Virus record (IMG/VR): IMGVR_UViG_3300037423_001636
Coordinates: 13,169 to 77,168 of that record
Source of the DNA: a virus
Taxonomy: Duplodnaviria > Heunggongvirae > Uroviricota > Caudoviricetes
Length of the DNA stretch: 64,000 bases
Reading direction: 5' to 3' (one strand)
How positions within the stretch are numbered: position 1 is the first letter of the stretch; each line of letters begins with the position of its first letter. The notes beneath the pieces are model-generated. The model saw only the letters and a list, made by a program, of their open reading frames with translations, did not search any database and was not told where the DNA came from. The translations under genes and the position numbers were made by a program. Below are positions 3,444-42,556 of the stretch, piece after piece.

Positions 3444-3580
3444 GCTCTTGTATCACAAAACGGTCTAGGGGAATCTGTTCCGGCCGGATGGTCCTCCCTG
3501 AGCAGTCCACTGCTGCGTATAGTGGGGCGCGTGACCAGCGCAGTGATTTCGCAAGGTTCGAGCCCTCGCCAAGAGCACCA
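3444..3580 (+). tRNA. tRNA-Arg(CCG)-like RNA with about 60-nt expanded variable arm
   Basis: Acceptor GCTCTTG/CAAGAGC+ACCA; anticodon arm ATCTG-TTCCGGC-CGGAT; T-loop GGTTCGAGCCC; weak D-stem. Confidence 0.65.
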
Positions 3581-28231: not shown

Positions 28232-28555
28232 ATGAATGCCACACTCGAATCGATTGAAACGGTCTTCACTGTCTCTCCGTGGTATCGGGAAGCGTCTTTC
28301 CCACAGGGCAAACCAATTGCTTGGCGAAGATACTGCCACGTTCAGTCCAAACTGAAAGAGATAGTGGGACACGTAGACGGAATGCCGGTCCAAGTGTCTG
28401 TGAGTCAGTGGCGCATCACAGTCTATGATGACAAGCCGCGTAAATTCTGTGTGACTGAGTGTCAACCGGGTCGTGGATTCGTGGCAAAGAGCAAGATTGC
28501 GGCGCTGCGCGGGATAATGGATCGTTGCGATCAAACGGGCCGATATACGGGGTAG
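28232..28555 (+). CDS. hypothetical protein
   Basis: ORF in gene string. Confidence 0.55.
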   Translation: MNATLESIETVFTVSPWYREASFPQGKPIAWRRYCHVQSKLKEIVGHVDGMPVQVSVSQWRITVYDDKPRKFCVTECQPGRGFVAKSKIAALRGIMDRCDQTGRYTG

Positions 28556-28771
28556 ATGAAATTAACAGCGCAGGCACAGCTTGAGACGTTCTATGCGTTC
28601 AAACGCATGCACCGGAATGATCTTATTCATATCGCCGAACAGGCAGGGTTGGAACCGACTCACTACAACACGCACGAGAAACGGGCGGCTGGGGTAACTG
28701 TGTTTTATTATCGCTCGGTGGCGCTGTTCGCGAGCACAAAGAAAGAGATCAACAAACCATTCGGCCAATGA
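28556..28771 (+). CDS. hypothetical protein
   Basis: Abutting ORF. Confidence 0.55.
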   Translation: MKLTAQAQLETFYAFKRMHRNDLIHIAEQAGLEPTHYNTHEKRAAGVTVFYYRSVALFASTKKEINKPFGQ

Positions 28772-29004
28772 CCATCGGCCAAATAGCTGAGGCAGCTAAA
28801 GCGGCGGGCGTGGACTCTGCGAAACTCACGCTCGCGCTACATGAGCCGGTTTATTTCTATCAGTGGCGCTATGGCACTGGTCACGTTACGTTCGGAAACC
28901 ATTGCACAGAAACAGAATGGCTGGCACAAGTGACAAAACAGTTGAAAACCAACCCCGGTTCTCCCATCAACCTGATTGAAAAGAAGGGGCCATTCGTCGA
29001 ATGA
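28768..29004 (+). CDS. hypothetical protein
   Basis: ATGA-coupled. Confidence 0.55.
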   Translation: MTIGQIAEAAKAAGVDSAKLTLALHEPVYFYQWRYGTGHVTFGNHCTETEWLAQVTKQLKTNPGSPINLIEKKGPFVE

Positions 29005-29029
29005 AACACGATCACCACTCTTACGATAA

Positions 29030-29074
29030 TAAGGAGAACCCCCTATAGACAAGGGACGCAAACTCTGATATTCT
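29030..29074 (+). promoter_or_regulatory. palindrome + promoter element 17 (upstream of tRNA-like cluster)
   Basis: TAAGG-N6-CCCTA TAGACA N17 TATTCT. Confidence 0.8.
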
Positions 29075-29104
29075 CTTTCCTGTTCGATTGATAGTTCAAT
29101 TTAC

Positions 29105-29347
29105 GCGCGATTAGCTCAATTGGTTCCTGTCGGCGCTCCGCAAGGAGATACGGCAGGGGTGATAACCGACGAAGACTAGACGAGAGACCCCGATGCTAAG
29201 TCTCCATTGCAAGGGATACGACCCGGAGGGCACTCAGTCTAGCTAGTAAGCGGCGACTACCTAGAGCGTCATCGGTGGAGCGATCCACCATACACGATGA
29301 AGGTTGCCACAGGTCTGAAACGACTGGTTCGAGTCCGGCATCGCGCA
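29105..29347 (+). ncRNA. tRNA-Val(TAC)-like scaffold with three structured insertions (243 nt)
   Basis: GCGCGAT/ATCGCGC acceptor, TAGCTCAATTGGT..AGAGC D-arm, TCATC/GATGA stem with TACAC, GGTTCGAGTCC T-loop. Confidence 0.7.
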
Positions 29348-29361
29348 ATCCTTTTTTTTAT

Positions 29362-29451
29362 GCTCTGCCCCTGCTTGACAGGGGTAAACTGTCAACCTCT
29401 GTTGCAACAGGGGCGCAGCGTAGCGGGGCCGAATGCAACGCTAGAGCGCCA
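29362..29451 (+). ncRNA. CCA-ending cloverleaf with non-canonical arms
   Basis: GCTCTG/TAGAGC+GCCA closing three hairpins. Confidence 0.5.
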
Positions 29452-29457
29452 ATCTTT

Positions 29458-29531
29458 GCGGGGATAGCTCAATTGGTAGAGCACGTCTAAACATGGCGTG
29501 GATAGAGGTTCGAATCCTTTTCCCTGCACCA
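29458..29531 (+). tRNA. tRNA with atypical anticodon arm (identity undetermined)
   Basis: GCGGGGA/TCCCTGC+ACCA; canonical D and T arms; loop TAAACAT lacks U33. Confidence 0.75.
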
Positions 29532-29646
29532 TTCTACACCGGAAATCGTGGAAACGGCATTCCATGAGAGACGGTCGATCAACGCCCTGCGTGCGCGGCT
29601 GGCTCTTCGTCTAAACGCCTTAAGGACGCCGGTCTATCTCTTTCCC

Positions 29647-30081
29647 ATGTCCTTTCGTCCCATCATCTGGAATCAATACCTCGGCAAACCTGAATGCCCT
29701 TACATGCGGCGATGGGTGCTGAATCTAGGTCTTTTCTCCATTCGTTTGCATCAGTGGTTTGCGGGCGACGACGATCGCGCTCTGCATGATCATAGCTGGG
29801 ATTTCTGGGTGTGGGTCCTGCGCGGCTCCTATATGGACATTTCCAAGAGCAAGGGTCAGATGGTCGAGCAACTGATGGTGCCTTCATGGCGTCCGACCTT
29901 CCGCAAAGCTGAGCATGCCCACACAGTCCAAACTAAGGGGTGCTGGACTCTACTACTGACTGGCCCCGAGCGACGAGCGTGGGGCTTCTTCATGAAGCTG
30001 CCGCGGACTGGCCATGTCAAATGGGTGAAAGCGAGTCGATATTTCCGCAAGCGTGGGCATCATCCATGCAGCTCAAGTTGA
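29647..30081 (+). CDS. cupin-like protein
   Basis: LHDHSWDF...AEHAHTV...WTL..TGP.RR.WGF. Confidence 0.7.
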   Translation: MSFRPIIWNQYLGKPECPYMRRWVLNLGLFSIRLHQWFAGDDDRALHDHSWDFWVWVLRGSYMDISKSKGQMVEQLMVPSWRPTFRKAEHAHTVQTKGCWTLLLTGPERRAWGFFMKLPRTGHVKWVKASRYFRKRGHHPCSSS

Positions 30082-30123
30082 GGTGTGGACCCCATAGACT
30101 CAGGAGATAGAATCTGATAGAGT
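30079..30123 (+). promoter_or_regulatory. palindrome + promoter element 18
   Basis: TGAGG-N6-CCCCA TAGACT N17 TAGAGT. Confidence 0.8.
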
Positions 30124-42046: not shown

Positions 42047-42556
42047 ATGGACACTACTTCCGCTCCTACCCTGCCCGCGCTAGTCCAGCTTTACCCGCTA
42101 CTCCGCCGGATCACTGAGCGCAAAGGACAATTCGTCTCGTGCCTTTGGATTCACTCTCTCAAGTCTCGTAAAGGTGTTTCCGCCCTAGTCACAAAAGAGG
42201 TTCGCACCACCGTGCGGAGTGGCATCATTTACGACAACCGCGAATCAGTCCAATTGGCTCGCACCGTTGGCAGTCGCCAAGGCGAAAGCTTGCCACCCGT
42301 CAACGCTGGACTTCCGTGGGGCGAATGGTTGGCTTTCCCTTATGTCATCGGGCACAAGGGAGCGCACTACGTTCGCCTTTATCCCGTGCTTCGCTCTGAT
42401 GGCGCGCCGCGCAAGTGCAAGGTGATCTATCGGGAGAACGGTGCGCGCATTACTCGCGAGCGTGCGCAGTCCCTTTGCCTCGCATCTGAGTTTGGCGAGA
42501 CAACAGACGTTACATGCTACACGCTGCGCCTGTCCGCGCTGCGTCGCGTGCGATAG
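42047..42556 (+). CDS. hypothetical protein
   Basis: LPWGEW..FPYVIGHKG..YVRLYP. Confidence 0.7.
   Translation: MDTTSAPTLPALVQLYPLLRRITERKGQFVSCLWIHSLKSRKGVSALVTKEVRTTVRSGIIYDNRESVQLARTVGSRQGESLPPVNAGLPWGEWLAFPYVIGHKGAHYVRLYPVLRSDGAPRKCKVIYRENGARITRERAQSLCLASEFGETTDVTCYTLRLSALRRVR

Follow-up and report, generated by a model that had tools for sequence, protein, structure and literature searches.

The locus considered here raises the question of what a phage gene can be that keeps every stem of a tRNA while extra sequence is lodged in its loops, and whether an RNA of this kind is still a tRNA at all. The gene specifies a 243-nt RNA at positions 29105-29347 (plus strand) of the window, that is, of the whole 64,000-nt stretch of DNA that was analyzed, which covers positions 13169-77168 of a 205,168-bp (205-kb) virus record with direct terminal repeats. 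In the genome of this soil phage the same gene lies at 42273-42515, and 19 ordinary tRNA genes are called there by ARAGORN. A search of sequencing runs found the stretch in one soil-metagenome DNA run, probably its source, and no RNA run was listed.

A tRNA Cloverleaf With Three Insertions

All the tRNA landmarks listed by the first-pass annotation of this DNA are present, in the same order and at the same coordinates. The 5' strand of the acceptor stem and the beginning of the D-arm occupy 29105-29124 (GCGCGAT, U8, A9, GCTC and the D-loop bases AATTGGT at 29118-24, which include G18 and G19), as recognized from the sequence, by trimming and with the covariance model R1 introduced below. The acceptor stem is completely paired (GCGCGAT at 29105-11 with ATCGCGC at 29340-46, 7/7), the D-stem is formed by GCTC (29114-17) and GAGC (29264-67) and the anticodon stem by TCATC (29269-73) and GATGA (29296-300). 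Downstream of the first insertion the tRNA resumes at 29263-29273 with A21, the 3' strand of the D-stem, G26 and the 5' strand of the anticodon stem, both in the sequence and in the R1 match. The remainder of the anticodon loop, ATACAC, is followed by GATGA (29290-29300); it supplies U-A-C and then A37, with an A at position 33, a reading based on the sequence and on a survey of loops in the family. The variable loop AGGTT and the T-arm (GCC..GG/CCGGC, with the loop TTCGAGT at 29328-34) extend from 29301 to 29339, and the 3' acceptor strand with the discriminator A (29347) completes the molecule (29340-29347).

Three insertions interrupt this body. The largest, of 138 nt, follows G19/U20 (29125-29262) and its architecture can be read through the R1 alignment to relatives. 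The second is a 16-nt hairpin 5' of the anticodon, GGTGGA-GCGA-TCCACC (29274-29289), with six perfect base pairs and a GNRA tetraloop, exactly where it had been annotated. The third corresponds to the extra variable-loop nucleotides noticed earlier and comprises about 17 nt at the junction between the variable loop and the T-stem (29309-25). According to folding it can form GGTC-TGAAAC-GACT; alternatively, it can be read as a 22-nt long variable arm with a T-stem ACTGG/CCGGC. This third insert was found in this phage only and not in its relatives. All three avoid the stems, whose 21/21 pairs are intact, and the idea of a tRNA shell with insertions confined to loops is upheld by the sequence.

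The intact 243-nt sequence has a folding energy of -92.9 kcal/mol (z = -2.8 vs shuffles), and the cloverleaf, when it is forced on this sequence, costs about 10 kcal/mol. ACCA is encoded in most relatives, unlike in the 243-nt RNA, in which the discriminator is followed by ATCC and then by a run of eight T (29352-59). Upstream, a sigma-70-like promoter-like site on the same strand (29046-29074) consists of TAGACA, a 17-nt spacer and a TG-extended TATTCT, with a predicted start about 22-25 nt before the RNA. A palindrome and promoter module (CCATAGGG...CCCTATAGACAGG) similar to positions 29040-29074 of this phage precedes the expanded tRNA at L146:790-860, and the likeness of the two modules suggests a shared early-gene expression system.

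What RNA Searches Recognize

Standard tools do not see this gene. RF00005 gave no match over 29105-29347 at E values up to 10, and ARAGORN did not call the RNA with or without its anticodon-intron option; both ARAGORN and Rfam call only the neighboring tRNA-Val(AAC) at 29458-29531. Of 5,760 in-silico versions from which the inserts had been deleted at varying boundaries, 2,459 were called as a tRNA by ARAGORN. To this extent the expectation that a trimmed RNA would score as a tRNA was correct, but in 2,039 of the 2,459 calls the program left a two-base anticodon undetermined (1,905 as "(ac)" and 134 as "(gg)"), because the leftover loop ATACAC is one base short. If one hairpin base is kept, the last seven bases of the loop are CATACAC, with an A at position 33. 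U33 is universal in decoding tRNAs, and its absence means that trimming does not yield a canonical tRNA-Val(UAC). The likeness to a Val(TAC) cloverleaf that had been pointed out is real, as the four stems, U8, A14, G18 and G19, A21 and a T-loop of the type TTCRANY are all present, but a working anticodon loop is not part of it: the length is 243 nt against about 70-95, the loop has 22 nt instead of 7 and U33 is absent.

The first-pass annotation had also argued against group I introns, and the searches agree with it: neither RF00028 nor any other Rfam family matches the insert, here or in the relatives, and no intron or ribozyme family is matched in the window (E up to 10) or in the relatives (E up to 1). 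The insert, which ends in ...ACCT before AGAGC, has no terminal G, and C or T is the last base in 5/6 close copies. Regarding splicing of the archaeal type, the PF01974 endonuclease and RtcB are without a match in the phage genome, which likewise has no match to the CCA-adding family (PF01743); the profile of the T4 Rnl1-type family gave no match even in control genomes. The proposed search for an RNA ligase or a splicing endonuclease had a divided outcome, with no match to a tRNA-splicing endonuclease but with a gene for a PF09414 RNA ligase (genome 166198-167247; L153). The ligase gene lies beside a Ro60/TROVE gene (genome 163510-165018; L004:8511-10019) located inside the main tRNA cluster, and the pair is about 121 kb away from the 243-nt RNA. 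Between tRNA genes of the same cluster there is also a weak match to the manA RNA motif (L004:6008-6272, genome ~161007-161271), which scores 24.7 bits where the gathering threshold is 55.2.

A Family of tRNA Look-Alikes Upstream of a Cupin Gene

The covariance model R1 is based on the nearest expanded copies, namely L063, L146, L150 and L151. It matches 29105-29350 end to end (44.8 bits, E ~8e-13 in 331 kb) and, with 47.3 bits, also the neighbor at 29458-29531. The latter (plus strand), identified by ARAGORN, Rfam and R1 as a "tRNA-Val(AAC)", is a family member of normal length that encodes its CCA and shares the loss of U33, its loop being TAAACAT with A33. The first-pass annotation had overlooked both the membership of this neighbor in the same non-canonical family and the linkage to a cupin gene. 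Between the two RNAs, in the same transcription unit and on the same strand, a structured element recognized from the sequence (29362-29451) has a GCTCTG/TAGAGC stem, contains GCCGAATG and ends in GCCA; it may be a third, minimal tRNA mimic.

The cupin-fold gene (29650-30081, plus strand) encodes a thiol-dioxygenase-like protein of 143 aa, as judged from homologues, PHROG and the predicted fold. The ATG at 29650 was taken as the real start on the basis of the aligned N-termini of the homologues, of which 120 were found in a metagenomic protein collection. The predicted fold is a small metal-binding cupin (pLDDT 94.9), closest among solved structures to ergothioneine dioxygenase, TM1459 and cysteine dioxygenase, and the His, Asp and Cys residues conserved among the homologues are consistent with a metal site. 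The protein matches PHROG 4786 (phrog_4786), labelled "cysteine dioxygenase", and has no match to a Pfam, NCBIfam or PADLOC family.

Starting from the cupin homologues of the metagenomic collection, at least 80 loci were examined and 79 non-redundant ones were counted, a set from which the contigs of the closest homologues (P0002 and P0006) were left out; P0002, with 70% identity, has an 880-nt gene-free gap upstream of its gene in a JGI contig of sample 3300071325, and P0006 belongs to sample 3300071358. In at least 56 of the 79 metagenomic loci, R1 finds a tRNA look-alike of the Val(NAC) or Ile(GAU) type directly upstream of the cupin, with its 3' end at most 150 nt, and mostly at most 12 nt, from the conserved N-terminus of the protein. 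Twenty-nine of these 56 are expanded copies, 95-209 nt long. In a control set of 52 bacterial loci, mostly of marine Gammaproteobacteria, whose cupin homologues are more distant (28-46% identity) and have short plain N-termini, no such RNA occurs within 700 nt. This conserved linkage to the downstream cupin gene is the strongest clue to the 243-nt RNA.

The anticodon is another conserved feature. Among the 59 members with a readable loop the triplet is NAC in 34 and GAU in 20 (54/59), a purine stands at position 37 in 47/59 and the NAC-A pattern is kept across the family. U33, instead, is present in only 16/59, against 28/42 of the other tRNAs of the same loci, and has been lost in 73% of the family. 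One locus, L148, has a second copy just before the cupin start codon (L148:1425-1492), which scores 52.5 bits as an Rfam tRNA and whose anticodon loop is reduced to 3 nt (CCAGC-TTT-GCTGG). Since NAC/GAU and the purine at 37 are kept, U33 is mostly lost and a 3-nt loop occurs in L148, it is apparently the identity bases of the synthetase type, not the geometry needed for decoding, that selection maintains.

Insertions in the family are confined to two sites, one following G19/U20 in the D-loop and the other in the 5' part of the anticodon loop, and at both N34-N38 are left single-stranded. Both are used together in the window copy, L150 and L151, and an anticodon-loop hairpin of the same kind is found at the same site in L150, L151, L094, L078 and L085. 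The 243-nt RNA shares with the expanded look-alikes the anticodon half (NAC-A or GAU in the family), the insert site and a downstream cupin on the same strand. The suggestion of a wider class of tRNA-scaffolded phage RNAs is well founded insofar as at least 29 expanded members exist, but the other RNA on which it had been built, at 3444-3580, was not matched by R1 in a scan of the window. That RNA is a second tRNA shell, whose acceptor stem (GCTCTTG/CAAGAGC) is followed by ACCA; its T-loop is TTCGAGC, its insert comes after the GG of the D-loop and an anticodon arm is lacking. The family of expanded look-alikes has apparently not been described before: a limited full-text literature search and Rfam scans yielded no description of a natural tRNA scaffold with a conserved 100-140-nt D-loop domain.

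Structure and Covariation of the D-Loop Insert

The four sequences on which R1 is based have their D-loop insert at the same site, and their consensus consists of the four tRNA stems plus the helices of the insert. Compensatory changes are seen in 26/50 pairs, and 97% of the cells of the alignment are paired; shuffling gave no result as good in 500 trials (0/500), and the signal collapses when the partners are slid by 1-3 columns. From 5' to 3', the insert of these relatives begins with a helix of D-loop bases 15-20 with a segment resembling GGGUCAC, which is followed by a small hairpin and by a joiner rich in GAA. Next comes a helix with strong covariation, which flanks the invariant strands UGAGGCUAAA and UGAAGGUAG, and then a hairpin with a palindromic loop (UUGCAA in most copies, UUCGAA in L151), a YUAGUA motif and a final small hairpin before A21. 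The core of the insert is also found in L148 and L098.

As far as the window copy is concerned, the features that had been attributed to its insert of about 138 nt, namely the helices GTCGG/CCGAC, CTCC-GCAA-GGAG, CTAGAC/GTCTAG and TAGT/ACTA and the duplicated GCAAGG(A)GATACG, are all there. CCTG/CAGG (29126-29/29154-57) encloses the hairpin CTCC-GCAA-GGAG (29136-47), GGGTGAT (29157-63) takes, in the alignment, the place of the strand that pairs with D-loop bases 15-20, and a GAA-rich joiner (29171-75) leads to the helix CTAGAC/GTCTAG (29176-81/29237-42), whose interior includes a hairpin with the loop UUGCAA (29207-12). The 3' part is made of CTAGTAAG (29243-50) and of TAGT/ACTA (29244-47/29256-59). 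In the R1 alignment the parts shared with the relatives are the outer ones, that is, the D-loop bases pairing with GGGGUGAU, CCUG/CAGG, the GAA joiner, CUAGAC/GUCUAG, CUAGUAAG and UAGU/ACUA, together with the UUGCAA-loop hairpin. The interior (29182-29236) is expanded and no homologue of it was detected, the model R2, restricted to the insert core, giving no match there. The conservation that the first-pass annotation had hoped for thus takes two forms: the nearest relatives covary, but the interior of the window insert is without a homologue. Since R2 does not match the window insert, covariation is demonstrated for the relatives and not for the helices specific to the window copy, for which conservation is demonstrated at the level of the architecture.

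Besides its training sequences R2 finds nothing, the anticodon-loop inserts included, and consequently homology between D-loop and anticodon-loop inserts, suggested by a shared UUGCAA hairpin and AGUAA, is conjectural. The core motif UGAGGCUAAA...UGAAGGUA has 21 viral and more than 120 genome matches, a number in line with chance (roughly 300 predicted in 596 Gb); as homologues they were all rejected by R2 except for the marginal L227 (21.2 bits, E ~0.007). Other routes to relatives gave little. BLAST of 28500-30100 against 50,697 phage records produced no match, three loci reached via the Ro60 protein contain no copy of the 243-nt RNA, the large terminase has no close relative in viral contigs and the 78-aa protein encoded upstream has no homologue in 5.8 billion proteins. 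A pattern of the anticodon arm plus hairpin had 0 matches, while a gapped D-arm/AGAGC/T-arm pattern had 46, some of them with other, shorter expanded tRNAs. Matches over the full span (~210-250 nt) were discarded as homologues, having at most 6/7 acceptor pairs and corresponding to neighboring tRNAs.

A tRNA Shape Within a Reading Frame

In many high-GC relatives the cupin reading frame is open through the entire tRNA look-alike. This applies to 19/23 normal-length copies, the other two frames being open in 5 and 15, and to 13/23 expanded copies, with 1 and 6 for the other two frames. A conserved peptide, W-E-P-T-(R/K)-H-G-G-F-R-R-T-G-V-A-Q, starts upstream and enters the 5' acceptor strand, so that its last residues are encoded by this strand and by the D-arm; in distant relatives the predicted read-through frame spans WEPTRHGGFRRTGVAQ and the tRNA-encoded segment. 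The peptide displays third-position variation of the coding type and AGG/CGC switches at arginines, and the acceptor and T stems still covary in the read-through loci (L092, L100, L101, L104, L106, L109-L112, L129, L131-L133, L135, L137-L140 and L143). On account of the open frame, the coding-type variation and the covarying stems, one and the same sequence seems to serve in the high-GC relatives both as a tRNA shape and as a part of a protein. The look-alike family would offer a clean, testable case of selection for tRNA shape and for protein coding on a single sequence. In this phage and its nearest relatives the cupin gene starts after the RNA, and there the inserts are largest.

Two minor observations concern cupin reading frames. 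In copies of the Ile type an in-frame AUG is often located in the anticodon loop (CAGAUGA). The cupin homologue at L150:1233-1724 agrees with its database protein only when TGA codes for tryptophan, and an alternative genetic code may therefore operate in that relative.

An Intact Scaffold or an Interrupted Gene

The explanation tentatively preferred here, to which somewhat less than an even chance is assigned, is that the 243-nt RNA would be a stable, non-decoding RNA built on a tRNA scaffold and working intact with the co-transcribed cupin. Transcription from the promoter-like site at ~29046-29074 would yield the 243-nt RNA, the normal-length look-alike and the cupin message together. The intact acceptor stem and T-arm would permit excision and protection by the host RNase P, RNase Z and CCA-adding enzyme, and charging by ValRS may be possible. 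In the tRNA core the identity bases for valine, A35, C36, A37 and the discriminator A73, are retained. With extra arms in the D-loop and in the 5' half of the anticodon loop, ribosomal decoding would be implausible. The 138-nt D-loop domain would represent a functional cargo, most likely acting with the co-inherited cupin as its RNA partner, substrate or regulator, perhaps through direct contact. This proposal is favored by features indicating that tRNA shape and recognition of the anticodon bases are retained, and decoding is not: the loss of U33, the anticodon-loop hairpins and the 3-nt loop on the one hand, and the conserved bases, the discriminator A and the mostly conserved CCA on the other. 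It is also favored by the perfect stems despite three insertions, by the end-to-end R1 match, by the difference between 56/79 linked loci and 0/52 bacterial ones, by insert sites that spare N34-N38 and by the covarying insert helices of the four relatives. Moreover, the window copy, L150 and L151 have, besides the D-loop domain, a hairpin in the anticodon loop that is short and stable and as such difficult to reconcile with an intron. The more specific proposals of the first-pass annotation for an RNA acting intact, an anti-defence decoy or a carrier of aptamers, found no direct support.

Against an intact scaffold speaks that some relatives become canonical tRNA-Val genes if the insert is removed exactly, which is how an intron would look. 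L146 is the clearest of them, having without its insert a CUCACAC loop, a normal T-arm and ACCA, and L063, L079 and L082 behave likewise. The gene could then be an interrupted tRNA-Val, with the D-loop domain as a new small intron, protein-dependent or self-cleaving, whose flanking exons are rejoined, perhaps by the phage ligase; this possibility appears doubtful, though it is the most serious alternative. It would account for the precision and recurrence of the insertion sites (after G19/U20, or between 31 and 32), for the G18, G19 and canonical T-loop of the nearest relatives and for the PF09414 ligase, the presence of which in the tRNA cluster also weighs against an intact scaffold. In addition, D-loop bases 15-20 are predicted to pair with the insert in a helix reminiscent of an exon guide, in which a U-G pair marks the junction, and the invariant internal loops could form a catalytic core. 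On the other hand, no intron or ribozyme of Rfam is matched at the E values given above, the terminal G is missing, the 100-140 nt available are below the size of a group I core and the phage is devoid of RtcB and of a tRNA-splicing endonuclease. The window copy would further need two more excisions, one of them of the perfect 16-nt hairpin, and would still end up with A33, in a family in which U33 is mostly lost anyway.

Two other explanations account for less than either an intact scaffold or an intron. One of them is a role in cis, in which cleavage of the leader by RNase P and RNase Z would define where the cupin mRNA begins (tRNA punctuation) or control its expression, leaving the released RNA without a role of its own. 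The cupin start lies 8-30 nt past the CCA end in the nearest relatives, with no obvious ribosome-binding site, a spacing that fits the near-leaderless style of this phage, and a separate promoter module is lacking for the cupin. The look-alike of many distant relatives even overlaps the start of the reading frame, so that processing and translation would be mutually exclusive there. A plain tRNA shape would nevertheless suffice for processing, and neither a conserved, covarying domain of 100-140 nt with invariant loops nor the conservation of NAC-A and GAU would be explained; here, furthermore, 300 nt separate the expanded copy from the cupin gene downstream of it, and this interval holds another element and the second look-alike. 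A role limited to processing is unlikely. Decay is more improbable still: the gene would be a functionless duplicate of the neighboring tRNA-like gene that gathered insertions. The third insert, unique to the window copy, and the missing CCA point in this direction and, with the interior at 29182-29236 that lacks a homologue, also weigh against the intact scaffold; the 5' part is also very similar to the neighbor at 29458. Decay would hardly leave all 21 stem pairs intact and three inserts that avoid every stem, however; independent relatives use the same D-loop and anticodon-loop hairpin sites, and a promoter-like site precedes the RNA.

A broader picture, possible rather than probable, would be that of a modular RNA system in which a chargeable but non-decoding Val/Ile tRNA body is combined with a conserved domain, which might dimerize via its palindromic UUGCAA/UUCGAA loop, and with a thiol-dioxygenase-like cupin, the tRNA shape being even translated in distant relatives; or else the domain would be the first member of an intron class not seen before, small and specific to tRNA genes, in viruses of bacteria. 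Mimics of tRNA recur as a tool in virus-host conflict and in RNA quality control. If the RNA acts intact, nature would be using the "tRNA scaffold" trick of RNA engineers, in a new RNA-protein unit with an uncharacterized cupin; if it is spliced, a new intron class would exist in viruses that infect bacteria.

Comparison With Known tRNA-Like RNAs

Several known RNAs share part of this design. In tmRNA an acceptor of the tRNA-Ala type, with G3-U70, is combined with an internal reading frame for a tag. The 243-nt RNA is similarly tRNA-like and likewise accommodates a large domain between its two acceptor strands, but it has no tag frame, its 3:70 pair is G-C, it possesses a full anticodon stem and the tmRNA search of ARAGORN was negative. 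The tRNA-like structures of plant RNA viruses of the TYMV type are valine-accepting 3' genome ends with a pseudoknotted acceptor arm. They have in common with the phage RNA the nature of a viral tRNA mimic that does not decode, the retention of valine identity bases within a loop like that of an anticodon and an end of the A-CCA type; the phage RNA differs in being a separate gene of a DNA virus, with a normal 7-bp acceptor stem, large extra domains and a charging that is only predicted.

Introns of tRNA genes are known from bacteria, as group I introns in anticodon loops, and from archaea, as bulge-helix-bulge introns at non-canonical sites; no bacterial intron is known at D-loop position 20/21. 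The resemblance lies in an intervening sequence at precise and recurrent sites, without which several relatives are canonical, whereas the group I core, the terminal G, an Rfam match and a phage splicing endonuclease are all missing and the promoters are of the bacterial type. The engineered tRNA scaffold of Ponchon and Dardel is reportedly used for RNA expression, with the cargo replacing the anticodon arm. Here too a cargo domain would sit in a tRNA body to be processed and stabilized by tRNA enzymes, but mainly in the D-loop, with the 3' half of the anticodon kept and in a design that is natural and conserved.

Another natural parallel is the bacterial Y RNA YrlA (RF02553), a non-decoding RNA that joins a tRNA-like module to an extra functional module and also occurs in phages (Chen et al., 2014; PMC4201824). 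In M. smegmatis YrlA is cleaved by RNase P and receives CCA; the molecule is permuted, ends in the Ro-binding stem, has the order T, acceptor-like stem, D, contains a Ro60-binding motif GNCGAAN0-1G and is encoded at most 4 kb from rsr on the same strand (PMC4201824). The 243-nt RNA, apparently non-decoding as well, likewise adds an extra module to a tRNA-like one in which D-arm, T-arm and acceptor-like stem are present, and its phage encodes a Ro60/TROVE protein; it differs in the normal order of its tRNA arms and in its great distance from the Ro60 gene. RF02553 has no match at the 243-nt RNA and its best score, 13 bits, is elsewhere in the genome, nor was a YrlA-type Y RNA detected near the Ro60 and ligase genes. 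A GACGAAG at 29168 has the form of the Ro60-binding motif, probably by chance, with 0.2 occurrences expected per 243 nt; it is absent at that place in L150, L063, L148 and L098.

Tools made for canonical tRNAs evidently miss tRNA-shaped genes when they are expanded, and counts of phage tRNAs are underestimates because of such invisible genes. Unrelated phage tRNAs of about 120-127 nt were also noticed (L034:9854-9979, L036, L046 and L048; L038 and L053; IMG/VR), with anticodon-loop inserts of 44-50 nt and with acceptor stems in which all 7 bp are perfect. Phages may commonly have expanded or interrupted tRNAs that are overlooked by tRNA finders.
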